This document shows positions 1 to 39,941 of a stretch of 64,000 bases of DNA, piece after piece (position 1 is the first letter of the stretch; each line of letters starts with the position of its first letter). Location of the stretch: contig CAWJGT010000003.1 in assembly GCA_963842525.1 (NCBI GenBank), positions 160,001-224,000 on the forward strand. Reading direction: 5' to 3'. A program made the position numbers and the translations under genes. This stretch comes from an uncultured Holophagales bacterium. GTDB taxonomy: Bacteria > Acidobacteriota > Thermoanaerobaculia > Multivoradales > UBA5704. The notes beneath the pieces are model-generated. The model saw nothing but the letters and a program-made list of their open reading frames with translations. It was not told the origin of the DNA and did not search any database.

Positions 1-511
1 TCAGGCATACGGCCAGGAAGGCGGCAAAGAGGAAGGGATTCTCCAGGCTCCAGCGATGTCGTTTCACCTCGACAGGAACGGTAGTGGGAAGGCCGGCTTG
101 CACGAGGGCGACGAGGTCGGGCATCGCTTCGAAACCGGCGAGGAGGAAGGATGGACCGGTCCGCGGAAAGACCTGGACGGACCCCGGCGTACCCCGGGAA
201 TCCTGATGGATCCGGACCTTCTTGATCTCTTCCCAGGGGACCTCGTGCCGGAGCTTCCCAGACTCGCGGACGATGCCGTCAGGCCGTACGAGAAGCCGTG
301 AACGGCCCCATTTGCGTAGCTCAACCTGGACGAGCAGGAACAAGACGAAGGCGGTGATCCCAACGGGAACGAACGCGGAGATCCGAGCGCCGCCGCCGCT
401 GCCGACGAGCGCGTGCACAGCGACGAAGGCCAGGATCATCAGGATCAGGATGACCATGCGCCTTCGAGCTCTGGCGAGGAAGTCTTCAGAAAGGGTGAAT
501 TCCTGGGTCAC
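1..511 (-). CDS. Membrane protein (two N-terminal TM segments, then a soluble PH-like segment); runs off the window edge
   Basis: Manual translation from GTG at 511: MTQEFTLSEDFLARARRRMVILILMILAFVAVHALVG...ITAFVLFLLVQVELRKWGRSRLLVRPDGIV...EVPWEEIKKV. No stop before base 1, so it is absent from the ORF track. Confidence 0.6.
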   Translation of the reverse strand, partial: MTQEFTLSEDFLARARRRMVILILMILAFVAVHALVGSGGGARISAFVPVGITAFVLFLLVQVELRKWGRSRLLVRPDGIVRESGKLRHEVPWEEIKKVRIHQDSRGTPGSVQVFPRTGPSFLLAGFEAMPDLVALVQAGLPTTVPVEVKRHRWSLENPFLFAAFLAVCL

Positions 512-693
512 GGAGTCACTCCAGACCAAGACCAGGGACGAACATGGATCGCAATGAGACTACCACAGACAGGTCTCCCATCCTCCGACCCCCGTGCGTT
601 GACACCGCACCACCCCGGCGATAGAGTCCGCGCGAAACGGAAAGAGCAGGGGTCTCGTTCGCTGCTCCGGGGGCAGCGGTCGGAGCGGATGCC

Positions 694-2859
694 TTGAGCC
701 GGTCCAAACCTATCGAGGTCGCCGTCGTTGGCGGCGGATGCGCTGGTCTCACGGCGGCTTTCGAGCTGAGCCGGCCGGAGCACCGCGGCAGGTTCCATGT
801 CACCGTCTATCAGGTCGGGTGGCGCCTGGGTGGCAAGGGCGCTTCCGGGCGGGGGGCGGCCGACCGCATCGAGGAGCATGGGCTCCATGTCTGGATGGGG
901 TTCTATGAGAACGCCTTCCGGCTGATGCGGGAGTGCTATGCCGAGCTGGGCCGCGATCCCAAGACCTGCCGCATCGCGACCTGGCGCGACGCTTTCTTTC
1001 CCGATCCTTATGTCTGCCTGACCGAGCGCTGCGGCAATGACCGTGGGGGTGACGACTGGCGCTTCTGGACGGCGTTCTTTCCGGAGGGGCACGGCAACCC
1101 CGGGGACCCCCTGCGCGACGAGAACCCGTTCACGGTCGCCGGCTATCTCTCCCGCTGTGCGACGCTGCTGCGCTCGCTGCTGGTCTCGGCGTGCGACCAG
1201 GCCGCGCCTCCCGGCCGTCGCGACCGGCCGGAGCCTTCGGTCTTCTCTCCCGAAACCCTTCTCGAGAACATCAACCGGCTGCTGCGCTATGGCCAGCTCG
1301 CGACCATGGCCGGCGTGCTGGAGGCTTGCCGCCTGCTGGAGGGGGGCCTGGCTTCGGTGGTGCGCGCCCCGGACAACCTCATCCTCCGCCTGATCGACGC
1401 GGTGGCGGCCGGCGCGCGCAGGCTGCTGGAGACCCTCTGCCAGACCAACGACGAGACGCGGCGCATCTGGGAGCTGGTCGACCTGGTGCTCGCCATCCTG
1501 CGTGGGTCCGTCCGCTTCGGGCTGGCCACGCATCCCAAGGGGTTCGACGCCATCGACGACTACGACTGGCGCGAGTGGCTGCGGCTCAACGGTGCGTCGG
1601 AGGCGGCGCTCGATTCGGCGTTCCTGCGCGGGGTCTACGACCTGCTGTTCGCGTATGAGGACGGCGACCCCGAGCGGCCCCGCATGGCCGCCGGGCAGGC
1701 GTTGCGCGGCGCGGTGCGGATGTTCTTCACCTATCGCGGCGCCCTGTTCTGGAAGATGAGCTCCGGCATGGGGGACATCGTCTTCGCCCCCCTCTACGAG
1801 GTCCTCCGGCGGCGCGGCGTCTCGTTCCGGTTCTTCCATCGTCTGGAGAACGTCCGGCTGGCTGACCCGGCACAGCTCGCTCCGGGCGAGCGTCCCTATG
1901 TCGAATCTTTGGAGCTCGACGTCCAGGCTGAGATCGAAGGGGATGAGTACCGCCCCCTGATCGACGTGCGCGGCCTGCCGTGCTGGCCCGCGGCGCCGGA
2001 CTGGGACCAACTCGTGGACGGTCCGCGGCTGCGCGACGAGGACTGGCGCTTCGAGTCGTTCTGGGATCGCCGCAAGGCAGGGCAGCGCACGTTGCGCGTC
2101 ACCGAGGACTTCGACTTCGTCGTCCTCGCCCTGGGCCTCGGAGCCATCCCTCATGTGGCCCGCGACATCCTGGCCCGCGATCCGCGCTGGCGCGACATGG
2201 TGCGCCACGTCAAGACGGTGGAGACCCAGGCCTTCCAGCTCTGGCTGAAGGAGGACGCCCGCGGCCTGGGATGGACCGGCCCGGCGGTCAATCTGTCGTC
2301 CTTTGTCGAGCCCTTCGACACCTGGGCTGACATGCGGCAGCTCATTCCGGAGGAGAGCTGGCCCGTGCCGCCGCGGTCGATCGCCTATTTCTGCAACGTC
2401 CTGCCGGGCCCGGCGAAGGCGCCCGGCCGGTCGCGCAAGGGCTATCCGGCCGAGCGGCACAAGGAGGTGCGGGAGAACGCGGTCCGCTTCCTGGAGCGCG
2501 ATATCGTCCAGCTTTGGCCGCGTGCGGCCGGTCCAGGCGGTTTCCGCTGGGACCTGCTGGCGGCCCCGGACAGTGGTGTCCAGGGCGAGGCCCAGGGGGA
2601 GGCCCGGTTCGACACGCAGTTCTGGACGGCGAACGTGAATCCCTCGGACCGCTATGTGCTGACGCTCCCCGGCAGCTCGAAGCACAGGATCTCGCCGCTG
2701 GACAATACTTATGACAATTTGACCATCGCCGGGGATTGGACGGATTGTGGGCACAATGCAGGCTGCGTCGAAGCGGCGGTGATAGCGGGCCGGCTGGCCG
2801 CGCACTCTCTTTCCGGGTCGCCCGCGCTGGAGGATATTGTCGGCTATGACCATCCGTAG
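694..2859 (+). CDS. FAD/NAD(P)-binding oxidoreductase, carotenoid desaturase/amine oxidase-like superfamily
   Basis: VAVVGGGCAG dinucleotide motif, RLGGKGASGR, EEHGLHVWMGFYENAF, C-terminal AGDW and GCVEAAV. Confidence 0.85.
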   Translation: MSRSKPIEVAVVGGGCAGLTAAFELSRPEHRGRFHVTVYQVGWRLGGKGASGRGAADRIEEHGLHVWMGFYENAFRLMRECYAELGRDPKTCRIATWRDAFFPDPYVCLTERCGNDRGGDDWRFWTAFFPEGHGNPGDPLRDENPFTVAGYLSRCATLLRSLLVSACDQAAPPGRRDRPEPSVFSPETLLENINRLLRYGQLATMAGVLEACRLLEGGLASVVRAPDNLILRLIDAVAAGARRLLETLCQTNDETRRIWELVDLVLAILRGSVRFGLATHPKGFDAIDDYDWREWLRLNGASEAALDSAFLRGVYDLLFAYEDGDPERPRMAAGQALRGAVRMFFTYRGALFWKMSSGMGDIVFAPLYEVLRRRGVSFRFFHRLENVRLADPAQLAPGERPYVESLELDVQAEIEGDEYRPLIDVRGLPCWPAAPDWDQLVDGPRLRDEDWRFESFWDRRKAGQRTLRVTEDFDFVVLALGLGAIPHVARDILARDPRWRDMVRHVKTVETQAFQLWLKEDARGLGWTGPAVNLSSFVEPFDTWADMRQLIPEESWPVPPRSIAYFCNVLPGPAKAPGRSRKGYPAERHKEVRENAVRFLERDIVQLWPRAAGPGGFRWDLLAAPDSGVQGEAQGEARFDTQFWTANVNPSDRYVLTLPGSSKHRISPLDNTYDNLTIAGDWTDCGHNAGCVEAAVIAGRLAAHSLSGSPALEDIVGYDHP

Positions 2860-2871
2860 GAGGAGCCCGAG

Positions 2872-3681
2872 GTGAAGGGCCAACGTCTGCGAAGGGAGGA
2901 CCCCGTGAGGACGGAACCCATCCGCAATTTCTCGAACGCCTTCCGGACCGATCCCTGGGAGGACCCCGATCGGTATGGAACCGGCGACCCATGCGGCCCC
3001 GGTCCGGCCGGAGACGCCGGAAGGTACCGCGACCGCGCGTCCTGGAACGACGTGGTCTCGCGCGGCGTCGAGCTCGGTTATCAGGTGATCGAGGACCAGA
3101 TCCGCCAGGGCCAGCGCGTGGCTCGCGACCTGAACGATCGGCCGTACGACGTCGGCCGGATGAGCGACGACCTCTGGGAGGTCACGGAGAGGAGCTTCCG
3201 TTACTACTCGGAGGCGACCAATCTCTGGATGCAGTTCCTGACCGGCATGTCCTGGATGGGGGGCCCCGGGATGGGCGGCCCCTGGACGAGGCCGTGGGGC
3301 AGGCCTGGGGACAGACGGCGCCCCGAGGAGGCTGCGTCTGCGCCATCCCCGGCCGAGAGCGGCTGGCGCCGGGTGGCCGTCGCGTTCGAGGTGGACTCTC
3401 TCCGCCCGGTGAGCGTGGAGCTCGACCTGCATACGCCCGGCGACGTCGCCCTCCCCCTGGCCGCGGTCGGGCTGCAATCGCTGGAGGGGCACACGGCGTT
3501 GACGGAGATCACGTTCGAGCCCGGCGTCGTCCGCGAGGGGGTCCGCCTGCGGCTGCGCATTCCGGACGACCAGCCGGCCGGCTTCTACACCGGCGTGGTC
3601 TTCGACCAGCGCACAGGACAGTCACAGGGCACGCTGTCGGTGCGCGTGTCCGAGCGGGTCGAGCGGGTCGAGCGGGACTAG
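2872..3681 (+). CDS. Hypothetical protein in the operon (helical N-terminal part, beta-rich C-terminal part)
   Basis: AGGAGG RBS upstream of GTG; 12 bp from the upstream gene and 4 bp from the downstream gene. Confidence 0.7.
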   Translation: MKGQRLRREDPVRTEPIRNFSNAFRTDPWEDPDRYGTGDPCGPGPAGDAGRYRDRASWNDVVSRGVELGYQVIEDQIRQGQRVARDLNDRPYDVGRMSDDLWEVTERSFRYYSEATNLWMQFLTGMSWMGGPGMGGPWTRPWGRPGDRRRPEEAASAPSPAESGWRRVAVAFEVDSLRPVSVELDLHTPGDVALPLAAVGLQSLEGHTALTEITFEPGVVREGVRLRLRIPDDQPAGFYTGVVFDQRTGQSQGTLSVRVSERVERVERD

Positions 3682-3685
3682 GGCG

Positions 3686-4735
3686 ATGGCTGCCGCGGAT
3701 CTGCCGAAGCTGGTCCCGGAGGTCTTGCGGGAGTACAGCGAGATCACCCGCGAGGCGCTGCGGGAATACCTGCCGTCGCGGGAGCCGCGGCGCCACCTCT
3801 ACGACCTGCTGCCCGACTACCCGCTGCGCGGCGGCAAGGGGATGCGCCCGAGCCTCTGCATCGCCACGGCGCGCGCTTTCGGGGGCCGGCTCGAGGACGC
3901 CCTCGGCACGGCGGTGGCCATCGAGCTGCTCCACAACGCCCTGTTGATCCACGACGACATCGAGGACGAGAGCGAGGAGCGCCGCGGCAAGCCGACGCTG
4001 CACATGCTCCACGGCATCCCGCTCGCGCTGAACGTCGGCGACATGCTGACCCTGCTGAGTCTGCGTCCGCTGATCGAGAACCGGGCGCGGATCGGCCCGC
4101 GGCTCGCCATGCAGGTGATCGAGGAGACCGAGCGCATGGCGCAGGAGTCGGCCGAAGGGCAGGCCATGGAGCTGGGCTGGCGCCGCGACAACACCCTGGG
4201 CGTCGACGACTCCGACTACCTGCTGATGGTCCTCAAGAAGACCTGCTGGCTGGCGTCGATCCACCCCTGCCGGGTGGGCGCGCTCCTCGGCACCCACGGC
4301 GGCCTTTGCGGCAACGACCTCGAGCCGTTCCTCCGTTTCGGCTTTTTCCTCGGCGCCGCCTTCCAGATCCACGACGATCTGCTCAACCTGGTGGGCGATC
4401 CCGGGAAATTCGGCAAGGAGCTCGGCGGCGACCTGTGGGAAGGCAAGCGGACGCTGATGCTGATCCACCTCTACCGCGAAGCCGCGCCCGCCGAGAAGGA
4501 CCGCATCTCCGAGCTCCTGGGCCTGCCGCGGGAGCAGAAGAGGGCCGCCGACATCGCCTGGATGCGCCGGCGGATGGACGACTACGGCTGCATCGAATAT
4601 GCGCGGCACATCGCTCACGGACTGGCCGGCGCCGCGCTCCACGAGTTCTCCCTCCTCTATGGAGGACTACCCGACTCGCGGGACAAACGGTTCATCGAAG
4701 GCATGGTGACCTGGGTCTTCGAGCGGGAATCGTGA
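3686..4735 (+). CDS. Polyprenyl diphosphate synthase (trans-IPPS family)
   Basis: GGKGMRP, FARM HDDIED followed by RRGKPT, GQAMEL, KT, FQIHDDLLN (SARM variant), DLWEGKRT. Confidence 0.92.
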   Translation: MAAADLPKLVPEVLREYSEITREALREYLPSREPRRHLYDLLPDYPLRGGKGMRPSLCIATARAFGGRLEDALGTAVAIELLHNALLIHDDIEDESEERRGKPTLHMLHGIPLALNVGDMLTLLSLRPLIENRARIGPRLAMQVIEETERMAQESAEGQAMELGWRRDNTLGVDDSDYLLMVLKKTCWLASIHPCRVGALLGTHGGLCGNDLEPFLRFGFFLGAAFQIHDDLLNLVGDPGKFGKELGGDLWEGKRTLMLIHLYREAAPAEKDRISELLGLPREQKRAADIAWMRRRMDDYGCIEYARHIAHGLAGAALHEFSLLYGGLPDSRDKRFIEGMVTWVFERES

Positions 4736-4745
4736 AAGGCTCCGC

Positions 4746-6993
4746 ATGAAAACTGCTCCCGATCCTGGCAGCCCTCTCCTCGCCAGCCCGTTCCTCTCCC
4801 GCAGCCCCGGGATGGTCCCGCCGTTCAACTTCCCCGGCGTGACCATGCGCGTCTTCCCCCTGAAGGCGGACATGTACGTCCTGCGGGCCTTTTGCGACAA
4901 GTACCTGAACGTCGCCCCGCCCGAGGTCGCCGAGTTCGAGCCGTTCGCCCCGTTCGTCTACATGATCGTGCTGCACTACGGCAAGATGTCCGTGGAGGCC
5001 GCCAACCTCGGGTGGATCTCGCAGCACGAGGTGACCTTCAGCGTGCCGCTCCTGTGGCACCGGCGCCGCGCGAACGGGCGGGAAACCGTCGACTGGGCCT
5101 ACGTGACGCCCTTCATCTTCGTCGACAATCCGCTGTCGCTCACCACCGGACGGGAGGTGTACGGCTGGCCGAAGGTGCTGTCACATTTCCAGAGCGACAT
5201 CGACCGCTGGATGAGGTCCCCGACCAACGCGCAGACCCTGATGTCGATGAGCACCCTGGTGGTCGACCAGATCGGCGGAGTCGAAAGCGAGCAGGTGCTG
5301 TTGGAGATCGAGGACACCCTGATCCCCAACACGCCGCTCGCGCCGCCCGCCTACAAGCCCCTCTTCCGGGCCTTGACCGCCGCTCCCCGCGCGCTCTTGA
5401 GCTCCCTGTCGTTGGCCAGCGACCTGATGTCGATCTGGACCGCGCCGCCGCTGCTGGGCTATTCGCCGAACGATCGCCGCCTGCTGATGCAGAGCCTGGC
5501 CCAGGGCTTCCAGAGCACGCTGCCGCTGCGCGGGAGCCCGTACTACAACATCGTCACCCAGAAGCAGTTCCGGGACGTGCAGTTTCCCCAGACCCTCTGC
5601 TACCAGGCCCTGGTCATGTCGCGCATGACCCTCCGGCGTTACAACCGGGGCGGCCTGCTGGGCGACTTCAGCTACTTCCAGGGCGATAACTCGGGAGGGC
5701 TCCGCATCCTGGTCCACCGCTATGCCACGCAGACGATCGTCGACATCCTCGGGCTGGAGGTCGACCAGCAAATGGCGGTCGCTGGCAGGGCGGTCGACAT
5801 CCTGATGCCGATCTACCCCTTCTGGCTCGACCTGGATGTCGAGTACGGGCGGGGATCGACCCTCTGCTGGCGGACGCGCGAGTCGGCGTGGCACAGGGGG
5901 TCCGAAATCCTGCCGTCGGCGCCGGCGCAGCCGCCGGGCCACCTCTACAACACGGCGCAGGGGCCGACGTTCGTGGACATCGGAGGGCCCCAGCAGTCCG
6001 ACGACACCACGATCAACATCCTCCCGCTGCTGGCGAGCTTCGAGCGCCTCCAGCAGGTCGTCGACAACTACCTCAACGTCGCGCCGGATGTCAGGTTCGA
6101 GGCCTGTGGACAGTACGTCTATCTCGTCACGATGTCCTTTGGCCAGGTCACCTCGTCGCTCGACGCCCTCGGCTCCATCGCCGGGCGGGAGCTCGCCTTC
6201 TATATCCCGGTCTTGCAGCGCGGCGCGGACGGCCAGGAAAAGAGAGCCCTGCTGGCCCCCTTCATCTACGCGGACAACTCCACGGTCGCCGTCACGGGCC
6301 GGGAGGTGGGCGGCATCCCCATGATGCAGGCCCAGCTCGCCAGCCCGCCGGACACCTGGATGCGCGGCCCGTCGGGCTGGCGCACGCTCCTGCAGGTCAC
6401 GACGCTGCTCTTTCCCGTCCAGGACCTCGGCGTCGAGGCCACACAGCGGGTGCTCCTGGACATCTACGAGGGGAATCCGGAGGCGAGCGTGAGCCCCTTG
6501 CGCAAGCCGGGGGCCGCGGCCGCGGGCGAGGCGCTGGAGACGGAGCTGCGCCAGAGGGAGGAGCTGCGGCCGGCGGACCCTGAGGATCTAGTGCCCGGCG
6601 GGGACTTCTTCCTCGAGATGCTGGAGAGCAGAGAGCTCCGGGTGGTCACGCTCAAGCAGATCCCGGACTCGTGGGATGCGTCTCGCGCCGCCTACCAGGA
6701 AGCTCCTGATCACCGGCTGGTCCGTCGTGGGGCCCGACGACCCGAAGGCGCTGCGGGAGGAGCTGCATGTCCGGATCTTCCGCTATCCCAGCGCGCCCAT
6801 CGTCGAGACTCTGGGCCTGCGGTCCACGGCGAGCGGCAGCGTGGGCGGCGTCAATTTCGACGTCTGCGAGGTGGTCAAGCCTCACTCCGTCCGGCTCTCC
6901 CTGCGCAGCCATTGCCTCGGGTCGCTGGGCTGGCGGGCCGGCGGGGGAGCATGGCACGGGCCGGCCTCCTCCGGCCTCGTGAAGGGGGCTTGA
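4746..6993 (+). CDS. Protein with two ADC-like domains; one frameshift near 6700
   Basis: Two repeats of FI(F/Y)xDN...GREVxG...KQ(F/I)xD...YQ. After AYQ the homologous C-terminus (VRIFRYPSAPIVETLGL) continues in the 6676..6993 frame, so the ORF-track end at 7316 is spurious. Confidence 0.75.
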
Positions 6994-7044
6994 AGCCGGC
7001 GGGGTGCCCGAACGAACGGAGAGCCAGGAGAGGAGATCCCGAGA

Positions 7045-10000
7045 ATGGACCTGCCACGGTACAGCACCGGACGCGGCCCGGAAGATTCGGCTCCGGACCT
7101 CGTGCCGCCGTTCCTCTTCCCCGGGACGACGATGCGCGTCTTCCCCCTCAAGGCGAACATGTTCCGCCTGCGGCACTTCTGCGACACCTACCTCAACCTG
7201 ATGCCGCCCACGGTCGCGCGGTTCCAACCGGCCCTCCCGTATGTCTACATGATCGTCCTCGACTACGGGAAGATGGCCGTGGAGGAGGCGAACTTCGGCT
7301 GGATCTCGCAGCATGAGATCACATTCAGCATACCGCTCGAATGGCAACGGCAGCGCGCTGGGTGCTGGGAGCTGGTCGACCAGGTCTACGTGAACCCCTT
7401 CATCTTCGTCGACAGCCCCTTGTCGCTGACCACGGGGCGGGAGGTCTACGGCTGGTCGAAAATCCTCACCGAGCTGAGCCCCGGCATCCACTCGTGGCTC
7501 TCGGACCCGCGCGGCCCGCAGCGGCTGATGAGCCTCCGCGTCAAGGGCCTGGCCGGGATGCCCGCGCCGAAGGGCGTGCTCCTGGCGGAGGTCGTCTCCG
7601 AGCCGCCGCCCAACCCGAGCCTGGTGCCGCCGGACCTGAATAACGCCTGGAATCCGCTGGTGTGCATCCCCCGGGCGCTCCTCGGCTCCTGGAGCCTCCT
7701 GCAGGACTTCTGCGACCTGTCCGCGGCCCTGCCCATCCGGGGCTATGGGCCGAGCCCGCTCTCCTTCTTCGAGCGGCTGCTCCGGTCGGGGAGGAGGAAC
7801 AGCCCGAGTCAATCCGAGTCCGCCTCCGGCATCGTGACCCTCAAACAGTTCCGCGACGCCGAGCATCCGGACTGCGCCTGCTACCAGGCCCTGATCCATT
7901 CCGAGATGACGACCCGGAGGTTCAACCGGGGCGGCTTGCTCGGCGACCTCGACCTGCTGCGCGGCGACACTACGGGCGGCTATCGGATCCGCCTCCACCA
8001 TCTCGAGGCCTTGCCGATCCTGGAGTCGCTCGGCCTGGAGGCAGCCCGGGAGGTGGGGTTCGAGTCCTCCTACGTGGCGACGCTGAGACCGGTCTTTCCC
8101 TTCTGGCTCGACCTGGACCTGGAGTACGGCACGGGCCAGGCCGTCTGCTGGCGGACGCGGGAGTCCGACTGGGTGGTGGCCGGCAAGCCGGCCATCAAGG
8201 GGAGCGGGTCGCAAGCTCCGGCGGCGCCCCGCGGGAACCGCTACAACACCGTCCAGGGCTCCGCCGTGCTGCCGGGCCCGTTCTCCTACCCGCAGACGAC
8301 CCTGCACGGCTTCGCCCTCGCGGCGGACCCGGGCCGGCTCAAGAAGTTCGTCGACGGGTACCTCAACCTCGACGGCCTCGAGGCTGAGGCCGGCCTCCGC
8401 TTCGAGCCCTGGGGAAACCTCGTGCTCCTCGTCGTTGTGCACGGAGAGATCCGGTCCCAGGCGACCGCGCTCGGGTCCCTGCCAGCGCGGGAGGCCGGCT
8501 TCTTCGTCCCGGTCAAGGTATTCGAAAAGCGGACGGTGCCCGGCAGGGGTGCGGCTGAAGAGGGGCCGTACAGCGTAGCCCTGGTGACGCCGTTCCTTTT
8601 CACGGACAACAGCCTGCTCGCCATCGCGCACCGCGAGATGGCGGGGCATGCGATCACCGAGGCCACCCTGGAAGGGCCTGACGATCCGCGGCTCCCCGGG
8701 CCGGAGGTATCCCGCTCCCTGTTGCGGGTGGTGAAGGACGTCTTTCCAGGCTTAGGGCTGGGACTGGGCGCGGAAAAGCGGGTGCTCGTCGAGCTCGTCC
8801 AGCAACCGGGACCGGCGGACTGGCAGCTCGCGGGAGGAGGGGGCGACGAGGGACGGGTCCTCTCGGATGTGCTGAGCCTGGCCCGCAACATCATCACGCT
8901 CAAGCAGTTCCGCGATGCTCAGGACCCGAGCCGCGCCTGCTATCAGTCGTTCGTCTCCATCAAGAGGATCACCGGGGCGATGGTTCAGCCCACCAAGATC
9001 ACCGAGAACATCCAGGTAAAGATCCACCGCTATCCCAGCCACCCGGTCGCCGAGATGCTCGGGCTCGCCGGGGATGACTCCGGCGCCGCGGTGGAGACCT
9101 TCCAGCCGCTGCTGGCGGTCTGGGCGCAGGTGCACCTGCGCACCGCCAGGCTCCGGGAGATCTGCTGGCGGGCAGGCTCGAAGTGGCAGCGGCGGCACGA
9201 AGAGCTCCGCTCCCTGAGCCTCCGCGGCGAGACCAAAAAGGAGGTGGGGAAGATCGAGACGATTCTGAACAATGTCCTGGATGGCTGGAATACCCGGCTC
9301 GGCAACGTGCCGGCGAGCGCCGCGGCCCCCGCTCCGCTCCGAGCCGCCCGCTCGACGGCCCAGGCCCAGGCCGACTACGTCGAATTCACCTGGGGCCAGC
9401 AGTTGCCCGCGCCGTACACGTTCAAGGATGTCCGTCTGCGCGGCTTCACCCTGGCCGCCTCGTACGACAAGCTCGCAGAGCTCTGCGACAGGTTCCTCAA
9501 CTTCAAAGGATTTCACTACGAGCCGTTCCCCACGCTGATCCCGGGACAGTCCGTGGTCTACCTGCAGGCCCTCACCTACGGGTCCATCCGGTCGCTCGTC
9601 CCCGCCTACGGGAACGCCGGGTACAGCCAGCAGGACGAGGTCTACTTCGCCGTTCCCGTGATCGATCCCCAGACCGGCGATTTCGGCCTCTTCACACCCG
9701 TCATCTTCGTGAGCAATCCCTGGTCGCTGACCGCCGGCCGGGAGGTGCTCGGGTTCCCCAAAGGCCTGGGCCAATTCGAGCTGCCCATGGATATGGAGAA
9801 CCCTTATCCGATCCGGGTGGAGACCATGGCCTTCAACGAGTTCCAGCCCGAGAGCCGGCTCTCCTGGGGGCCGCTGCTCGAGATCATCGACCGGCCGGGG
9901 CCGGTGGCCGCGGCAGAGGAATTCGATCCGCGGGGGTTCTGGCCTTTCGGCGACCTGCGGAAGCTTCATGGCGACAGGGGGCCTCTGCCGCTGAAGAAGG

Positions 10001-10302
10001 ACTACTTCGACCGGCTGGAGGAGATCGCGAAGGAGATGAGCTATTCGAGCATCCAGCTCAAGCAGATCCGCGGCCTGCTGGCGGCGAAGGCGGCCTACCA
10101 GGAGGTCGTCCGCTCGACGGTCAAGCTGACCTCGCTCGACAACGGCGGCTTCCTGCCGCCCGCCGGCATCCGGCTCTTCACGACCGAGACCCTGCCGACC
10201 GCGGACGTCCTCGGCCTCGACGTCCAGAACGGCGTCGTGGAACCCTACCTCCCCTTCTGGCTCGACTGCGGCTTCGACTTCCTGGACCCGGTGGTGGTGT
10301 AA
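7045..10302 (+). CDS. Protein with three ADC-like domains; paralog of the upstream gene
   Basis: N-terminus VPPFLFPGTTMRVFPLKA closely matches the upstream paralog; GREVYGWSK, HREMAGHA and GREVLGFPK motifs; repeated LKQFRD/LKQIRG. Confidence 0.8.
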   Translation: MDLPRYSTGRGPEDSAPDLVPPFLFPGTTMRVFPLKANMFRLRHFCDTYLNLMPPTVARFQPALPYVYMIVLDYGKMAVEEANFGWISQHEITFSIPLEWQRQRAGCWELVDQVYVNPFIFVDSPLSLTTGREVYGWSKILTELSPGIHSWLSDPRGPQRLMSLRVKGLAGMPAPKGVLLAEVVSEPPPNPSLVPPDLNNAWNPLVCIPRALLGSWSLLQDFCDLSAALPIRGYGPSPLSFFERLLRSGRRNSPSQSESASGIVTLKQFRDAEHPDCACYQALIHSEMTTRRFNRGGLLGDLDLLRGDTTGGYRIRLHHLEALPILESLGLEAAREVGFESSYVATLRPVFPFWLDLDLEYGTGQAVCWRTRESDWVVAGKPAIKGSGSQAPAAPRGNRYNTVQGSAVLPGPFSYPQTTLHGFALAADPGRLKKFVDGYLNLDGLEAEAGLRFEPWGNLVLLVVVHGEIRSQATALGSLPAREAGFFVPVKVFEKRTVPGRGAAEEGPYSVALVTPFLFTDNSLLAIAHREMAGHAITEATLEGPDDPRLPGPEVSRSLLRVVKDVFPGLGLGLGAEKRVLVELVQQPGPADWQLAGGGGDEGRVLSDVLSLARNIITLKQFRDAQDPSRACYQSFVSIKRITGAMVQPTKITENIQVKIHRYPSHPVAEMLGLAGDDSGAAVETFQPLLAVWAQVHLRTARLREICWRAGSKWQRRHEELRSLSLRGETKKEVGKIETILNNVLDGWNTRLGNVPASAAAPAPLRAARSTAQAQADYVEFTWGQQLPAPYTFKDVRLRGFTLAASYDKLAELCDRFLNFKGFHYEPFPTLIPGQSVVYLQALTYGSIRSLVPAYGNAGYSQQDEVYFAVPVIDPQTGDFGLFTPVIFVSNPWSLTAGREVLGFPKGLGQFELPMDMENPYPIRVETMAFNEFQPESRLSWGPLLEIIDRPGPVAAAEEFDPRGFWPFGDLRKLHGDRGPLPLKKDYFDRLEEIAKEMSYSSIQLKQIRGLLAAKAAYQEVVRSTVKLTSLDNGGFLPPAGIRLFTTETLPTADVLGLDVQNGVVEPYLPFWLDCGFDFLDPVVV

Positions 10303-10369
10303 AGCGTTCAGCGCCAGGCGGGCGGCCGGTTATCGCACTCCGCCTCCCTCGGGCCCGCCTTTTTCTCTC

Positions 10370-10399
10370 TTGACAGGACCAGCGGGACGGCGACAAGCT
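10370..10399 (+). promoter_or_regulatory. Possible sigma70-type promoter for the GrpE/Hsp70 operon
   Basis: Perfect TTGACA at 10370-10375; weak -10 (CAAGCT) about 18 bp downstream; ATG at 10411. Confidence 0.3.
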
Positions 10400-10444
10400 A
10401 TTCCGCACTCATGACGGCGACCCGGAGGCCGGGTCGATCGTCTG

Positions 10445-11086
10445 TTGCAGGAGGGAATCGCGGCTCTGCGATACGAGGAACCTCAGCTCGAGCCAACGGA
10501 GGTGGACCTGCTGGCGGCCTTCGACGTCCTGGTCCAGGAGGTCGGGCGCCTGCGCAAGCTGCTCCTGAAGCTGGGCCATGCCCAGGAGCTGTTCCAGGGC
10601 AGGGTCGAAGAGGAGGTCGGGCGCCTCTCCCAGGCTCTGGACCGCGGCACGGCTGCCAGCCCCGGGGACCGGGACGCCGCCCGAGACGCCGCCCGAGACG
10701 CAATACCGAGCCCGCCCCAGCTTCGGACGTTGATGGAGCTCGACCGGGCGGTCCTCTATCTGCTCGCCTTCGTCCAGGATGGGGGCCGCGGCCCGCTCGC
10801 GAGCAATCCAGGGGAGGCGGACATGAGCCCGCGCTCGGTCCGGGAGGGGCTGGCCCTCCTGCAGGTCCGCGTGCGCAACCTCCAGAAGTCGTTCGGCCTC
10901 GAGCCGATCCCTTCGACGGGCTACCTGTTCGACGACCGCTGGCACCAGGCGTACGGCGTCTGCCACCGGCCCGATCTGGAGGATGGCGAGGTGGCCGAGG
11001 AGGTCCTGCCCGGGTACCGCCTGGGAGAGAAGGTGGCGCGGCCGGCTCTGGTGATCGTCAACCGTCACATGGAGGGACAAGAGTGA
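10445..11086 (+). CDS. grpE: GrpE-like nucleotide exchange factor; the true start may be ATG 10411 through an indel
   Basis: C-terminal FDDRWHQA...GEVAEEVLPGYRLGEKVARPALVIV GrpE signature; GTGA overlap with Hsp70. Confidence 0.8.
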   Translation: MQEGIAALRYEEPQLEPTEVDLLAAFDVLVQEVGRLRKLLLKLGHAQELFQGRVEEEVGRLSQALDRGTAASPGDRDAARDAARDAIPSPPQLRTLMELDRAVLYLLAFVQDGGRGPLASNPGEADMSPRSVREGLALLQVRVRNLQKSFGLEPIPSTGYLFDDRWHQAYGVCHRPDLEDGEVAEEVLPGYRLGEKVARPALVIVNRHMEGQE

Positions 11087-12852
11087 AAGAAACGATTTTC
11101 GGCATCGATCTGGGGACGACCAACTCCTGCCTCGCGCTCGTGGAGCCGGGCGGGCCGCGAGTGATCGACATCGACGGCCAGCCCATCGTCCCGTCCGTGG
11201 TGAGCCTCGACCGCAAGACCGGCGCGATGATCGTCGGGAGCCGGGCGCGCAATCGCCTGGCGCTCGAGCCGGGGTGGACCGTGCGCTCCATCAAGCGGCG
11301 GATGGGGCTGAACGAGCCGGTGCGGATCGGCGACCGGACGCTGCTGCCGGAAGAGATCTCCGCCGAGATCCTCCGCTATCTGCGCGAGCAGGGCGGGGAG
11401 GCCTGTGGCCGGGAGGTGCGCCGGGCTGTGATCACCGTCCCCGCGTACTTCGGCGACGCGCAGCGGCGGGCCACCCTGCGGGCCGGCGAGCTCGCCGGGC
11501 TCGACGTGGTGCGGCTCCTCAACGAGCCGACCGCCGCCGCTCTCGTCTATGACCGCACCTGGGTGCGCGGTCACGGCGCCGGAGCGGCGCTATCGGACAT
11601 TGCGGGAGCGGCGCTGTCCGACGTCGCCGGCTCCGGGCCCGGGGCACCGCAGCGGGTCCTGGTCTACGACCTGGGCGGCGGCACGTTCGACGTATCGGTG
11701 GTCGAGATCGGCGGCGAGATCAACGAGGTGCGCGCGAGCTGCGGCAACAACCATCTCGGCGGCGACGACTTCGACCTCCTGCTGGCGGAGCACATCCTGG
11801 CCGAGGTGCGCGAGCGCTACGGACGCGATCTCGGCGACGATCCGCGCGCCCGCGCACGGCTGCTCGACGCCGCGGAACGGGCGAAGATCGACCTCTCGAC
11901 GCACCCCTACGCGCGGGTCACCGAAGAGGCCCTGGCCCCGGGGCTCCATCTCGACCTGGAGATCGAGCGGACCGCCTTCGAAGAGCTGATCCAGCGCGAT
12001 CTCGACGGTACGCTTGCGGAGGTGGACCGCGCTCTCGCGGAGGCGCGCCTGCGGCCCGGGCAGATCGACCGGGTGGTCCTGGTGGGCGGCTCGACGCGCA
12101 TCCCCAAGGTTCTCCAGATGCTCGAAAACCGTTTCGAATGCCCTGTCGAGCACGCGATCGATCCGGCTCTGGGCGTGGGGTTGGGCGCCGCTCTGCAGGG
12201 CGCCATCCTGGGCGGTGAGATCTTCGACCAGATCCTGGTCGACGTGGCGGCCCACTCGCTGGGGGTCAGGACGCTGGGCGGCGCATTTCCGATGAGCATG
12301 GGGGAGCATTTCTCGGCCGTCATTCGCCGCAACACCCAGATCCCCGCCACCCGTTCGGAGGTCTACTTCACGATCCACGACAACCAGGAGAAAGTGCAGG
12401 TCGCGGTCTATCAGGGCGAGAGCGTCCGGTGCAGCGAGAATACCTTCATTGGTCACTTTTTCTTCGAGCTGGCGCCCATGCCGGCGGACAGCCCGGTGCT
12501 CGTGGAATTCAGCTACGACCTCGACGGGATCATCCGCGTGGTGGTGAGCCAGAAGGGCACCGACCGGCGCAAGGAGGTGACGCTGAGCACCCGCCGCGGC
12601 GGCCCGGATGCCGCGGATACCGCGGCGCCGGTTGGAGCGCGGCCGGTGGACAACTACATCCTGCGCAAGGCCCGGGCGCTTGCCGCTTCCCTGCCGGCCG
12701 GCGACATGCAGGAGCGCCTGCGAACGGCTGCTGTTGCCTACGAGGCGGAGCTGGGGCGCGGCGAGGGATCGCCCGATCTGGAGCAGGCGGAGAACGAGCT
12801 TTTGGAGCTTCTCGAGGCGCTGGAGGAGGCGCCGCTGTCCAGTGAGCCGTAG
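11083..12852 (+). CDS. Hsp70-family protein (specialised DnaK/HscC-like paralog, 589 aa)
   Basis: GIDLGTTNS, TVPAYF, NEPTAAA, DLGGGTFD, LGGDDFD, LVGGSTRIPKV; start GTG 11083 with GGAGGG RBS. Confidence 0.93.
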   Translation: MKETIFGIDLGTTNSCLALVEPGGPRVIDIDGQPIVPSVVSLDRKTGAMIVGSRARNRLALEPGWTVRSIKRRMGLNEPVRIGDRTLLPEEISAEILRYLREQGGEACGREVRRAVITVPAYFGDAQRRATLRAGELAGLDVVRLLNEPTAAALVYDRTWVRGHGAGAALSDIAGAALSDVAGSGPGAPQRVLVYDLGGGTFDVSVVEIGGEINEVRASCGNNHLGGDDFDLLLAEHILAEVRERYGRDLGDDPRARARLLDAAERAKIDLSTHPYARVTEEALAPGLHLDLEIERTAFEELIQRDLDGTLAEVDRALAEARLRPGQIDRVVLVGGSTRIPKVLQMLENRFECPVEHAIDPALGVGLGAALQGAILGGEIFDQILVDVAAHSLGVRTLGGAFPMSMGEHFSAVIRRNTQIPATRSEVYFTIHDNQEKVQVAVYQGESVRCSENTFIGHFFFELAPMPADSPVLVEFSYDLDGIIRVVVSQKGTDRRKEVTLSTRRGGPDAADTAAPVGARPVDNYILRKARALAASLPAGDMQERLRTAAVAYEAELGRGEGSPDLEQAENELLELLEALEEAPLSSEP

Positions 12853-15007
12853 ACGGCAGCAGAAGAAGGAGCTTCAGCGGCTCGTGTCTCTGGAGCGGCA
12901 GCTCGAGGCTCTCTATCAGCGCGGAGCCGACGGGGAGCTCCTGGAGCTGGCTCATCGGCCCGGCCGGCCTGCCCTGTCGCCAGAAGCGGCCGGTCTCTAC
13001 GGGGAGGTGGTGGACCGGACGTTGCGCCGGGCCCTCGCCGGCAGTGACCTCGCAGCGGTCGACCGCCTCCTCCGGCAGATCGGCCGCGAGGCTGCGGACC
13101 GGCCGTGGGTGCGGCTCGCCGAGGCCGTGAGGCATCTGGTGGAGGGGAAGCTCGACGCGGCCCGAACCTGCCTGGCCGCGTTGTCCGATCCTTCGCTCCC
13201 GTCGCAGCTCGTGGCAGCTCTCGCCGCGTTCTGCGCTCCGAGCCCCGAGCCCGCCGTCGAGGAGCCGGTGCCGCAGGCCCTGGACCGTCTCTACCGCTCG
13301 CTCGCCACCCTCGCCGAGCAGGGCTCCCGCCCGGAAGCCGTCCACCTTGCGGGCCTGGAAAAGGACGTGGCACTCCTGTGTGCGGAGCTCTCCGGCGATC
13401 CGGCGGCGAAGAAGCTGCTCGATGCCGCGCAGGCGTGCCTCCTCCGCCTGGCCGAGCTGGCGGACCTGGAGCAGGCGCTGCGCGGTGAGGAGGGGAGCGC
13501 CAACGTCCATCGGCTCTTCCTGGAGCGGGTGAACCGCCTCTCCGGTCCCCTGCTGGAGGCCCTTCGCGACAGTCCGGCCGTTCCCTTGATGCAGCCTCTG
13601 CGGCAGGCCCTGCGTCTGCGCTGGCGGGCGGTCCTCTCGCTCGTGATGGGGCGCGGGGACGATGAAGCCTGGCCTGCGGCCTTTGCGGGCTCCCCCTCTC
13701 TCTTCGCCCTGGACGTGGAGGCTGGCGATGGCCGGGCCCGGCTGGCACATCGCCAGGAGCTGCGCGAGCTCCTGGCGGCCGGGCGTTACCAGGCGCTCGC
13801 GCGCCGGTTGGCCTCCTGGAGCAGGTCCGAGCGGGTGCCCGAGCGCCTGGCCCGGCTCTGGAGCCTCGAGCTCTGGGCCTGGGAGCACGCGGCGACCGGC
13901 GGGGCTATGGAGGATGAGATCGTGGCGGCGCCCTCGGACACGGAGATGCATGATGTCCTGCTCCGCCTCGTGGCCATGGCCGGCGAGATCGAGCAGCGGT
14001 TCCCTGCCGAGCAGCGCCCCGAGGTCGCCCGCTTCCTGCGCACGGGGCTGTTCGATCTCTTCGAGACCGTGTACTTCTGCGACCATTTCCTCGCCGCCGC
14101 CGCGGCACTGCTCCGGCACCTCCCGGACGACCCCGGGCTGCTGGGAGTGGCGGTCACCGCCGCGGTCTGTGCGCAGGATCACCAGGCGTGCGCTGTGTTC
14201 GCGTCCCTCATCGCGGCCCGGACGGGTGTGCCGGACATGGAGCAGGAGCCCCTCTTGCGGCTCATCCCCCAGCTCGCGCATGAACCGGCGCGGCACGCCG
14301 CGCGCATTCTGCCCCTGCTGCGCCCCCTCCTGGAAGGGGAGGCCTGGTCGCGCGCCGTCTCGGCGTTCGCACAGCGGGTCACCAACCTCGCCTGCTCCGG
14401 TCTCCGCCGGGACGACAGCGAGCTCTGGGTGCACGACATCGTCCGGGACATCGGGCTCTACCGGACCGCGCTGCCCGACTCGGGCCAGCTCGCCGTCCTG
14501 GACGCAGCGGTCCGCTGCCTGCGCAGAGCCGGCGAGCCGCGGGATCTGCGCCAGCTCCTGGAGAGGACCCCCGGCCTCGCGCCGGCCCTTGTCGCGGTGC
14601 AGGTGTTGGTGGCCGCCGGCCCCCTGGTGCTCCCGCCCGTCCGGAAAGCTCTCGAGGATGTCCGGGAGACCGCCATCGAGCGCCTCGACGCCGACTGGCG
14701 GGTGTGGCGGCCGGCGTTACCCGACCTGGTGATCGGTGCGGAGAAGGGAACGGTCCGTAAGCTGCGCAAGCGGCTGCAACAACTCCTGCGCCAGCGCGAC
14801 CTCGGCGACACGGACCGGAAAGCGTTCGAAGAGATGCGCGAACAGATCCAGATGATGCAAAGCCTGGAGAAAGACCTGTGGCGAGACCTCGGTGGCTGGA
14901 GCATCCCCCACGACGAGGACGACAAGAGCGAGGAGAGCAAGCCGCCCCGCCCGAGGAAGTCACGCCGGCGCGCTGCCGGCGACGACCTGCAGCCCGAGCC
15001 TTTCTGA
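12842..15007 (+). CDS. Large alpha-helical hypothetical protein (~720 aa) in the Hsp70 operon
   Basis: GTG 12842 (MSRRRQQKKELQRL) overlaps the Hsp70 end; Leu/Ala/Arg-rich helical pattern; charged tail. Confidence 0.7.
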   Translation: MSRRRQQKKELQRLVSLERQLEALYQRGADGELLELAHRPGRPALSPEAAGLYGEVVDRTLRRALAGSDLAAVDRLLRQIGREAADRPWVRLAEAVRHLVEGKLDAARTCLAALSDPSLPSQLVAALAAFCAPSPEPAVEEPVPQALDRLYRSLATLAEQGSRPEAVHLAGLEKDVALLCAELSGDPAAKKLLDAAQACLLRLAELADLEQALRGEEGSANVHRLFLERVNRLSGPLLEALRDSPAVPLMQPLRQALRLRWRAVLSLVMGRGDDEAWPAAFAGSPSLFALDVEAGDGRARLAHRQELRELLAAGRYQALARRLASWSRSERVPERLARLWSLELWAWEHAATGGAMEDEIVAAPSDTEMHDVLLRLVAMAGEIEQRFPAEQRPEVARFLRTGLFDLFETVYFCDHFLAAAAALLRHLPDDPGLLGVAVTAAVCAQDHQACAVFASLIAARTGVPDMEQEPLLRLIPQLAHEPARHAARILPLLRPLLEGEAWSRAVSAFAQRVTNLACSGLRRDDSELWVHDIVRDIGLYRTALPDSGQLAVLDAAVRCLRRAGEPRDLRQLLERTPGLAPALVAVQVLVAAGPLVLPPVRKALEDVRETAIERLDADWRVWRPALPDLVIGAEKGTVRKLRKRLQQLLRQRDLGDTDRKAFEEMREQIQMMQSLEKDLWRDLGGWSIPHDEDDKSEESKPPRPRKSRRRAAGDDLQPEPF

Positions 15008-15654: not shown

Positions 15655-16233
15655 ATGTCCTCTCCTGACGAAGTCACCCGGCTGTTGCGGGCCTGGCGAA
15701 GCGGCGACGCGGGCGCTCTGGAGGAGCTTGCGCCGCTGGTCTATGCCGAGCTTCACCGCCTGGCCGAGAGCCGCATCCGGCATGAGCGGGCCGACCATAC
15801 CCTGCAGGCCACGGCCCTGGTGCACGAGGCCTATCTCCGGCTGGCGGGCGCCGACGCTCCCGACTGGCAGGACCGGGCCCACTTCTTCGCCGTCGCCGCG
15901 CGGATGATGCGGCGCATCCTGGTCGATCATGCCCGCGCCCGCGGCGGCCCCAAACGCGGCGGCTCCGTGCGCAAGGTCTCACTGGAGGAAGCCGCCGTGC
16001 TCACGGACGAACGCACGGAGGACATTCTCGAGCTGGACGAGGCCCTCGGCCGGCTGGCCGCTTTCGATCCCCGCCAGCACCAGGTGGTGGAGCTGCGGTT
16101 CTTCGGCGGCCTGTCGGTCGAGGAGACGGCGGAGGTGCTCGGCCTGTCTCCGATCACGGTGAAGCGCGACTGGCGGGTGGCGCGGGCCTGGCTGTATGCG
16201 GAGCTTGCGGGAGCCCGGGGAGCAGAGGCGTGA
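15655..16233 (+). CDS. ECF sigma factor, kinase-activated type (TIGR02999/ECF43-like)
   Basis: EVTRLLRAW, HTLQATALVHEAYLRL, DRAHFFAVAARMMRRILVDHAR, VELRFFGGLSVEETAEVLG, TVKRDWRVARAWL. Confidence 0.93.
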   Translation: MSSPDEVTRLLRAWRSGDAGALEELAPLVYAELHRLAESRIRHERADHTLQATALVHEAYLRLAGADAPDWQDRAHFFAVAARMMRRILVDHARARGGPKRGGSVRKVSLEEAAVLTDERTEDILELDEALGRLAAFDPRQHQVVELRFFGGLSVEETAEVLGLSPITVKRDWRVARAWLYAELAGARGAEA

Positions 16234-39293: not shown

Positions 39294-39941
39294 AGCCCTG
39301 AAGGGGCGACAGCATAGAGCCTGGGGCGCAAGCCCCAGGAAAGGGAGATCCCCCACAAACCCAAGCCCTGAAAGGGCGGTAGCAGACCATGGCCAGCAGC
39401 CTCACCAATCTCCTCTACCACATCGTCTTTTCCACCAAGGAACGCGTCCCTTTGATCCATGACGATCTTCGGGAATCCCTCTACGAATACGTCGGTGGAA
39501 TTCTTCGTGCCGAACGGAGCATCCTTCTTGAGATTGGCGGCGTGGCGGACCATGTCCACCTGCTGGCGAAGTTGAAGGCGGACCTCGCGGTCGCGTCGGC
39601 GGTGCGACTCATCAAGTCAAATTCCACCGGCTGGATCAACGACAACCGAAAGATCCAAGGACGATTCGAATGGCAGTCTGGATACTTCGCGGTCTCCGTG
39701 AGCGAGTCCCGTGTGGCGGAGGTCCGCCGGTATATACAGACGCAGCAGGAGCATCATGCGCGGATCTCATTTCGGGATGAATTGATCAAGTTGCTCAAGA
39801 AGCACCGCATTGCGTTTGATGAGAAATATTTTTTGGGTTGATGGGGCGGTCTGCTGTCGCCCCTTCGGGGCTTTTCGATGTGTGTGGGGCGTGTTCCTGG
39901 GGCTTGCGCCCCAGGCTATATGCTGACGCCCCTTCGGGGCT
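39294..39941. mobile_element. IS200/RAYT-like element: HUH transposase between ~95-bp inverted REP-like arms (39294-39388 and 39848-39941)
   Basis: Left AGCCCTGAAGGGGCGACAGCATAGAGCCTGGGGCGCAAGCCCCAGGAA...GCAGACC is the near reverse complement of the right arm. Confidence 0.85.
39389..39841 (+). CDS. tnpA: IS200/IS605-family Y1 transposase
   Basis: YHIVFSTKER, DHVHLL (HUH), WQSGY, VRRYIQTQQEHH. Confidence 0.93.
   Translation: MASSLTNLLYHIVFSTKERVPLIHDDLRESLYEYVGGILRAERSILLEIGGVADHVHLLAKLKADLAVASAVRLIKSNSTGWINDNRKIQGRFEWQSGYFAVSVSESRVAEVRRYIQTQQEHHARISFRDELIKLLKKHRIAFDEKYFLG

Follow-up and report, generated by a model that had tools for sequence, protein, structure and literature searches.

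Enzymes of the acetoacetate decarboxylase (ADC) superfamily have been described as single-domain proteins of about 250 amino acids (aa) that act in solventogenesis or amino-acid tailoring. They include the true acetoacetate decarboxylases (3bgt, 3bh2 and 3c8w) and aldolase-dehydratase or cyclase members, such as MppR (4jm3), Sbi00515 (4zbt and 6eej) and Swit_4259 (5upb). In isoprenoid metabolism, HpnC, HpnD and HpnE form a squalene route, HpnA belongs to hopanoid clusters, and the heteromeric hexaprenyl and heptaprenyl diphosphate synthases carry a small non-catalytic subunit. In our study, a five-gene cassette that brings features of these systems together was analyzed in an uncultured Holophagales bacterium. 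It lies at 694-10302 of a 64,000-nucleotide (nt) stretch, hereafter the window (contig CAWJGT010000003.1 of assembly GCA_963842525.1, positions 160,001-224,000), and it encodes a flavoprotein, a 269-aa protein, a trans-isoprenyl diphosphate synthase (IPPS) and two large proteins with ADC-type domains, g4 and g5. The component families were all known, whereas their combination is not known to have been described. The cassette resembled the ADC superfamily in its fold, in an aligned Glu and Schiff-base Lys, and in a Pfam score above the gathering threshold. Unlike those of the known members, its domains measured about 350 aa, contained a helical insert and were fused in tandem as one putatively active and one degenerate domain, with a third apparently active domain in g5, and its context was isoprenoid. 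On balance, it is likely that the cassette encodes an undescribed isoprenoid-derived biosynthetic pathway with Schiff-base chemistry.

Organization of the Cassette

The genome that carries the cassette has 9.95 Mb and roughly 68% GC. The features of the locus, with D1, D2 and D3 denoting the successive ADC-type domains, were as follows.

599-627, + strand: sigma-70-like promoter site TTGACA-17-TAGAGT, 67 nt 5' of the flavoprotein gene; consensus match only
694-2859, + strand: flavoprotein gene; FAD/NAD(P)-binding oxidoreductase of 721 aa, placed in the amine-oxidase/PDS/HpnE superfamily and divergent in its middle part
2872-3681, + strand: gene of the 269-aa protein; no known family, predicted IPPS-binding subunit
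3686-4735, + strand: IPPS gene; trans-isoprenyl diphosphate synthase of 349 aa with a polyprenyl_synt match
4746-6993, + strand: g4; two-domain ADC-fold protein whose frame is broken in the assembly by a single additional base (6700)
about 4809-5885, + strand: g4 D1 (R35/E95/K143; domain alignment)
about 5982-6990, + strand: g4 D2 (Met at the Lys position; domain alignment)
6700, + strand: extra A (GGAAG) that shifts the g4 frame from 0 to +1; missing in two related soil-metagenome contigs
7045-10302, + strand: g5; three-domain ADC-fold protein of 1085 aa
about 7102-8169, + strand: g5 D1 (R31/E91/K139)
about 8272-9189, + strand: g5 D2 (Ile at the Lys position)
about 9340-10299, + strand: g5 D3 (R799/E865/K906)

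The analysis of open reading frames (ORFs) gave intergenic gaps of 12, 4, 10 and 51 nt, in agreement with the five close, co-oriented genes of the first-pass annotation, an earlier reading made from the DNA letters. The promoter-like site was the sole one within 1-11200, compared with a mean of 0.6 in shuffled sequence. The five-gene set is conserved and probably co-transcribed. As that annotation had also stated, no phytoene or squalene synthase (SQS_PSY type) was found within the cassette, and the two PF00494 (SQS_PSY) matches of the genome sit on other contigs (C9 and C7).

Conservation and Distribution of the Gene Set

A scan of one genome per species gave 76 loci, all of which encoded D1-D2. 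They came from Thermoanaerobaculia, Myxococcota, Binatia, Nitrospirota, Gemmatimonadales, Latescibacterota, alpha-, beta- and gammaproteobacteria, and picocyanobacteria. By ORF clustering, IPPS, flavoprotein and ADC protein occurred together in 53 of these fetched loci from at least eight phyla, or in 54 with the locus of the window itself. Such recurrence means that the arrangement is far beyond chance, and the earlier label of an orphan operon was wrong. The first-pass annotation had also proposed a check of whether the genes co-occur in other genomes, and they did: tblastn detected the IPPS in 61 loci at 44-71% identity (57-71% for full-length matches), the flavoprotein in 57 loci at 48-65% (full-length matches), and the 269-aa protein in 45 loci at 20-39%. 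Where cassette genes were missing, the locus was in many cases a truncated contig, or an additional paralogue whose genome carries the cassette at another site.

The gene order was also retained. The gene of the 269-aa protein was followed on the same strand by the IPPS gene in 41/45 loci, the IPPS gene by the ADC gene in 41/61, and the flavoprotein gene by that of the 269-aa protein in 32/44. The flavoprotein gene was at times found 3' of the ADC gene, and the pair of 269-aa protein and IPPS remained joined. Tandem D1-D2 copies were present in this genome and at three other loci (three copies at L001, two each at L016 and L028). When the organism's own DNA was compared over the 18-kb upstream flank and 24 kb of the window, recurrence in many loci was limited to the four core families. 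An ABC-transporter ORF lying 9-10 kb upstream matched weakly in 8 loci, and a kinase-TPR ORF at 15786-18869 did so in 12 loci.

Among 1.84 billion proteins, the D1-D2 family comprised 2,527 cluster representatives at E <=1e-3, 1,762 at <=1e-10 and 591 at <=1e-30, and its members were labelled 'hypothetical protein' wherever the sources name them. Within the organism's own lineage, the cassette was rare and patchy: any ADC match was found in 6/31 relatives, the genome itself included, and a sample of the phylum contained the flavoprotein at E <=1e-80 in 3/301 genomes. ADC protein, IPPS and flavoprotein were adjacent in one of these three (G159), while another (G077), with a flavoprotein of 39% identity, had neither the ADC protein nor this IPPS. 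Overall, the cassette is widely distributed, probably horizontally scattered, and patchily inherited. Relative G159, of the same order, had at least four D1-D2 paralogues (contigs C124, C36, C31, C128 and C47), and only the C31 copy adjoined IPPS and flavoprotein genes.

ADC-Type Domains of g4 and g5

Against the Pfam ADC model PF06314, g4 and g5 scored 41.9 and 50.6 bits, respectively, compared with a gathering score of 29.8. The two proteins contained five homologous domains of about 350 aa, with 52% identity between the D1 domains, 38% between the D2 domains, and 28-32% for the remaining pairs. In the AlphaFold model of g5, D1 and D2 reached pLDDT values mostly of 80-94. The best 24 Foldseek matches of the model in the PDB were all ADC, MppR, Sbi00515 or Swit_4259 (E 1.7e-10 to 3.6e-8, TM 0.58-0.72), and the following matches had E >1e-3. 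Furthermore, the VIA search returned ADC-superfamily entries with Z values of 18.4-21.2 over 228-244 residues, mostly on D2, and the next entry had Z 4.5. The best match possessed a Z of 21.2 and an rmsd of 3.5 with 244/250 residues aligned. The earlier claim that the repeats adopt the ADC fold was thus borne out by both searches, and the beta-cone fold of D1-D2 was confirmed on the predicted structure. For D3, sequence homology suggests the same fold.

The catalytic residues differed between the domains. Among 121 aligned family sequences, K139, E91 and K267 of D1 were invariant (121/121 each) and R31 was kept in 120/121, while the D2 position matching the Schiff-base Lys was Ala, Thr, Ser, Val or Ile. 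In the window, the Arg/Glu/Lys triad was kept in g4 D1, g5 D1 and g5 D3, and the Lys was lost in both D2 domains (Met in g4, Ile in g5). The first-pass annotation had noted that ADC-superfamily enzymes use a Schiff-base Lys, and this residue was kept in three of the five domains. D2 is accordingly a degenerate partner domain, and D1 and D3 seem catalytically equipped. A phmmer alignment of the 137-aa D3 core with the Chromobacterium ADC (3bgt) placed the D3 Glu on E77 and the D3 Lys on K116 of the PKK motif.

In true acetoacetate decarboxylases, a second Lys directly after the Schiff-base Lys is a hallmark. The Lys motifs of g4 and g5 were PKV, SKI and PKG, compared with PKK in 3bgt and 3c8w, and the adjacent second Lys was missing throughout. 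For this reason, the proteins are ADC-superfamily enzymes and not acetoacetate decarboxylases. The NCBIfam acetoacetate decarboxylase model gave 18.9 bits against a cut-off of 150.

The ADC gene was duplicated in this genome, and the g5 copy had acquired a fused third domain with an intact catalytic triad. The D1-D2-D3 fusion was found only here and, by full-length coverage, in one metagenome protein of 67% identity, and a D3-like single-domain gene stood separately in two Nitrospirota loci. Most family members carried an extra 224-450 aa after D2; g4 had no such tail and g5 had D3 in its place. The extensions of five other members (L057, L006, L023, L042 and L035) gave no Pfam match.

IPPS and Flavoprotein

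The IPPS matched polyprenyl_synt (PF00348) with an E of 8.3e-54 and possessed both Asp-rich motifs, DDIED at residue 90 and DDLLN at residue 230, which agreed with its first-pass assignment as a trans-prenyl diphosphate synthase. Residues D90, D91, D94, D230, D231 and N234 were invariant in 26 orthologues. With a mean column identity of 71%, the IPPS was the most conserved member of the cassette, and an intact enzyme with all catalytic motifs in place is strongly supported. The nearest models were the archaeal-type short-chain IdsA/GGPP synthases (IdsA 195 bits vs 468), and no named equivalog, FPP synthase and the long-chain synthases included, was scored above its cut-off; these NCBIfam equivalog scores give no assignment of chain length.

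The flavoprotein matched NAD_binding_8 of Pfam (E 3.4e-10). It aligned with HpnE at residues 9-84 only (61 bits where the cut-off is 283; E 1.2e-16), and the phytoene desaturase (PDS) model gave 25.7 bits against 569; the N-terminus of the NCBIfam ZDS model matched as well. A profile of the family had a sole PDB match, the plant phytoene desaturase 5mog (E 6.9e-4), confined to the N- and C-terminal FAD-binding parts, and the GD-type C-terminal motif aligned with the same enzyme. The nearest Atlas clusters were 'flavin containing amine oxidoreductases' of 673-728 aa, and orthologues had a mean column identity of 61%. Placement in the PDS/HpnE/amine-oxidase superfamily is strongly supported. This placement agrees with the earlier description as a carotenoid-desaturase-like flavoprotein; no full-length match was obtained, the HpnE and PDS scores lying under their cut-offs.

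Like the hopanoid HpnC/HpnD/HpnE route, the cassette has an isoprenoid lipid context and a flavoprotein whose N-terminus is nearest HpnE. Unlike that route, it has no HpnC/HpnD (SQS_PSY) genes and no cyclase, and its scores are far under the equivalog cut-offs. Moreover, the HpnE model has 430 positions, a length that the flavoprotein exceeds by about 290 aa, and the central portion of the flavoprotein gave no match.

The 269-aa Protein as a Predicted IPPS Partner

The first-pass annotation had listed one protein of the cassette as unknown, and the 269-aa protein indeed had no match in Pfam or NCBIfam. It consisted of an N-terminal RLRRxDPxRTxPIRN motif, a helical hairpin (55-128) and a C-terminal Ig-like beta-sandwich (170-259). 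Its 33 aligned family members shared the N-terminal motif, the hairpin, a low-complexity linker and the C-terminal beta-sandwich, which was confidently modelled. The fold search gave nothing at E <=1e-3 with Foldseek, where a filamin Ig domain was best (0.11), and nothing at Z >=5 across VIA. A search of the Atlas returned unnamed clusters only.

The modelled complex of the IPPS with the 269-aa protein reached an ipSAE of 0.79, compared with 0.00 for the best of three controls. This mark was attained by 116/157 solved complexes and 2/215 mismatched pairs, rates that are only rough here owing to the custom alignments. The model runs agreed in at least 36% of contacts, with a partner pLDDT of at least 51. 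In the modelled interface, helix 58-77 of the 269-aa protein faced IPPS residues 175-183, 213-224 and 304-323. Binding of the 269-aa protein to the IPPS, with its first long helix docked onto IPPS helices, is therefore predicted. No fusion of the two was found: at locus L046 the genes were parted by a stop codon, and a search for longer fused forms was empty, which is weak evidence either way.

The pair recalls the heteromeric prenyl diphosphate synthases in that a small non-catalytic protein, here a predicted binder, is encoded directly beside the IPPS. The subunits of those synthases are IPPS-like and helical; the 269-aa protein, in contrast, combines a helical hairpin with an Ig-like domain.

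Reductase and STAND Proteins of the Extended Cassette

Further families were counted in the 54 loci in which IPPS, flavoprotein and ADC protein occur together (53 fetched and the organism's own). A reductase of the NAD-dependent epimerase/dehydratase type was present in 27/54 and a saccharopine-dehydrogenase-like reductase in 13/54, so that 40/54 had either type and none had both. The epimerase-type reductase was nearest to HpnA of hopanoid clusters (168 bits against a cut-off of 368; E 3e-49), to SdmB of bacterial sterol demethylation (E 2.6e-28) and to OleD, all under the cut-offs. A STAND-type protein occurred in 37/54 loci. It joined AAA_16 and TPR either to a class III cyclase accompanied by a zinc-ribbon or SAM domain, or to a Ser/Thr kinase. 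Five more loci had a kinase-STAND-histidine-kinase protein, which brought the STAND-type total to 42/54, sometimes with two or three copies. The organism's own locus was one of the 37 solely through the TPR-rich Ser/Thr kinase of 1028 aa encoded at 15786-18869 (TPR_10 E 2e-83), which had no detectable AAA_16 and clustered with STAND proteins via its TPR part. In this genome, a reductase 47% identical to that of locus L013 was found 1.08 Mb from the core, adjoining a zinc-ribbon-cyclase-AAA_16/TPR STAND gene. Since the two genes are adjacent though far from the core, their functions stay together also when detached.

The similarity to HpnE, HpnA and SdmB raises the alternative that the cassette branches off squalene/hopanoid-type triterpenoid metabolism. 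A triterpenoid produced by enzymes from other loci would then be the substrate of the flavoprotein and the reductase, with the ADC-fold proteins performing an accessory step such as keto-acid decarboxylation. These three were the best partial NCBIfam matches, and SQS_PSY genes do exist on other contigs of the genome. However, the scores were far under the equivalog cut-offs (61 vs 283 and 168 vs 368), and no SQS_PSY or cyclase family appeared in the gene clusters common to at least six loci. In addition, the IPPS that travels with the cassette is dedicated and highly conserved, which indicates a substrate supply of its own. We regard the triterpenoid branch as quite unlikely.

The STAND proteins resemble cluster-situated regulators of the MalT/LAL type, in that AAA_16 and TPR proteins are co-inherited with a biosynthetic gene set. 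Unlike those regulators, whose output is DNA binding, they have a class III nucleotide cyclase or a Ser/Thr kinase as output. The enzymes might instead execute the response of a stress, signalling or defence module under STAND control, which, on sensing a trigger through the STAND cyclase or kinase, would turn on production of a lipid or small-molecule effector or signal. The frequency of STAND-type proteins in the cassette loci, the adjacency of cyclase-STAND and reductase genes at a distance from the core, and a weak PycC-type PADLOC match of the cyclase domain (E 3e-13) speak for such a module. Against it, PADLOC assigned the five core proteins to 0 families, and only the neighbouring cyclase and kinase domains gave generic matches. 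Pfam detected no cyclic-nucleotide (cNMP)-binding domain in the core proteins, and STAND proteins also serve as ordinary cluster-situated regulators. This possibility was given a low probability, at around the level of a distant contender.

The likeness of the reductase to OleD, a beta-keto-acid reductase, together with the action of true ADC and its relatives on keto acids, would fit a catabolic role in which isoprenoid ketones or keto acids are degraded and ADC-type decarboxylation is one step. The most conserved member of the cassette is, however, an intact biosynthetic IPPS, and no conserved set of CoA ligase, thiolase or hydratase was found; an AMP-binding enzyme occurred in 7 loci only. 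Catabolism is hence considered highly improbable.

Frameshift in g4

As assembled, g4 contains a +1 frameshift at 6700, which the first-pass annotation did not report. In frame 0, the homology ended at about residue 653 and was followed by Arg-rich junk up to 7316, while the homologous C-terminus resumed in frame +1 and reached its stop at 6993. Contigs from two soil-metagenome runs of the same study (X2 and X3) were without one base at 6700, which gave g4 as a single frame of 748 aa. These contigs were about 98% identical over 151 nt at a depth of 2, with two to three other differences each, and the check rests on these two runs, as runs X1 and X4 did not cover 6700. The best match outside the genome itself, among 30 relatives, had 41% identity.

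The public protein record for g5 has 1009 aa compared with 1085 and begins at Met77. It is without the 76 conserved N-terminal residues (window 7045-7272), Arg31 among them, because the frameshifted g4 ORF overruns to 7316 and the gene was called 76 codons late. The STAND gene beside the HpnA-like reductase (- strand, about 1244905-1248265 of the same contig) was likewise split into two ORFs of 558 and 670 aa, which share about 320 nt and are read in different frames; its orthologues are single proteins of about 1120 aa. With a second long gene split on the same contig, assembly indel errors are suspected. At locus L015 (a Myxococcales metagenome-assembled genome), the flavoprotein gene at 5493-7661 had one internal stop, and the ADC gene there was present as two ORFs.

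Such a frameshift could also mean that the operon is decaying in this genome, with g4 a true pseudogene and the system non-functional. The separation of the cassette from its reductase and STAND genes and its patchy occurrence in relatives (6/31) and in the phylum sample (3/301) would agree with decay. Nevertheless, the extra base is missing in the related metagenome contigs, the split STAND gene suggests assembly indels, and the remaining genes are intact with their catalytic motifs, g5 supplying a complete D1-D2-D3. Decay of the operon is therefore very unlikely, and an assembly indel in g4 seems more likely than a true pseudogene.

Proposed Pathway

No characterized pathway was matched among the NCBIfam equivalogs, and no description of the cassette was found in the literature searched, in which subscription journals were outside the scope. 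The absence of a match to a characterized pathway, which the first-pass annotation had assumed, agreed with these searches and with PADLOC, within the literature covered. Given the recurrence across many phyla and the lack of a match to any described pathway, the cassette probably makes an undescribed isoprenoid-derived compound. The first-pass interpretation of a pathway to an uncharacterized isoprenoid-derived product is thus supported by the co-occurrence of the genes, the ADC fold and the negative pathway searches.

We infer the product and the chemistry of this pathway, and any specific reaction is far less certain than the pathway itself. An all-trans prenyl diphosphate of short or medium length would come from the IPPS and its accessory subunit, and the isoprenoid would be oxidized or desaturated by the flavoprotein. 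The D1 Lys may capture a carbonyl compound as an imine or enamine; the likeliest is a keto acid, as in ADC, MppR and Sbi00515. This intermediate could be used for decarboxylation or for C-C coupling with the isoprenoid, and the HpnA/SdmB/OleD-like reductase might reduce the resulting keto group. Control of the system, or sensing of its product, would be the role of the STAND cyclase and kinase proteins.

A more specific proposal, which we put forward as speculative and unlikely, is that D1 is a new C-C bond-forming enzyme in which a Lys-bound enamine from a small keto acid attacks an isoprenoid electrophile, with a signal or lipid tied to the STAND proteins as the product. The enamine would arise either following a decarboxylation of the ADC kind or directly, in the manner of the pyruvate aldolase-dehydratases. 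The electrophile could be an allylic diphosphate or an aldehyde made by the flavoprotein, delivered by the IPPS with its new accessory subunit. The isoprenoid ketone or keto acid so formed might act as the signal or lipid linked to the co-inherited STAND cyclases and kinases.

Several observations weigh against a biosynthetic pathway of this kind. The cassette has no recognizable prenyltransferase, terpene cyclase or phosphatase that would join the prenyl diphosphate to the carbonyl chemistry, and its reductase is not adjacent in this genome. About 13 loci had D1-D2 paralogues without the cassette and without common neighbours. The flavoprotein resembles known families only at its FAD-binding ends. 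For the ADC domains, the PF06314 match spans model positions 42-116 of 238 alone, and no ADC entry was obtained from PDB sequence searches with the whole g5, a five-domain profile or a 40-sequence family profile. The link to ADC catalysis relies on this Pfam match together with the weak pairwise alignment of D3 with 3bgt (E 0.094), and D3 was poorly modelled (pLDDT <50) because the 40-sequence alignment used as input for g5 did not contain it. The operon copy may be partly inactive, as g4 is frameshifted as assembled.

Neighbouring Features

Downstream of g5, an Hsp70/DnaK-like gene was found at 11077-12852 (ORF 10411-12852; HSP70 E 2e-119, with a score under the DnaK equivalog cut-off). Its ORF stays open for about 220 further Pro/Gly/Arg-rich codons 5' of the gene start, and a 799-aa ORF without annotation follows at 12608-15007. 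The Hsp70-like gene and the next ORF were ruled out as members of the system, as tblastn detected them in 0/76 cassette loci. No riboswitch or other Rfam element was found near the cassette in the window or in loci L012, L013 and L034. Elsewhere in the window, two matches to the Acido-Lenti-1 small RNA were present, at 39294-39339 (- strand) and 39896-39941 (+ strand), with 47.5 and 52.8 bits, respectively, above the gathering score. They lie about 600 nt apart on opposite strands and are in keeping with an acidobacterial genome.

Significance of the Cassette

The gene set is kept in Acidobacteriota, Myxococcota, Nitrospirota, Binatia, Gemmatimonadota, Latescibacterota, Pseudomonadota and cyanobacteria. 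No precedent for a Schiff-base enzyme fold linked to prenyl chemistry was found in the literature searched. Terpene-type cluster rules require a synthase or cyclase. Should the product prove to be a new isoprenoid lipid or signal, the cassette would define a biosynthetic class that such rules would likely miss. Several carriers are cultured and harmless, so the question is directly testable; cultured carriers among the 76 loci include Sulfitobacter mediterraneus DSM 12244, Rhodopila globiformis DSM 161, Polyangium fumosum DSM 14668 and Methylotetracoccus oryzae C50C1. If the proposed pathway is true, a large family of 'hypothetical proteins' would gain a function, and the IPPS would gain a new type of accessory subunit.

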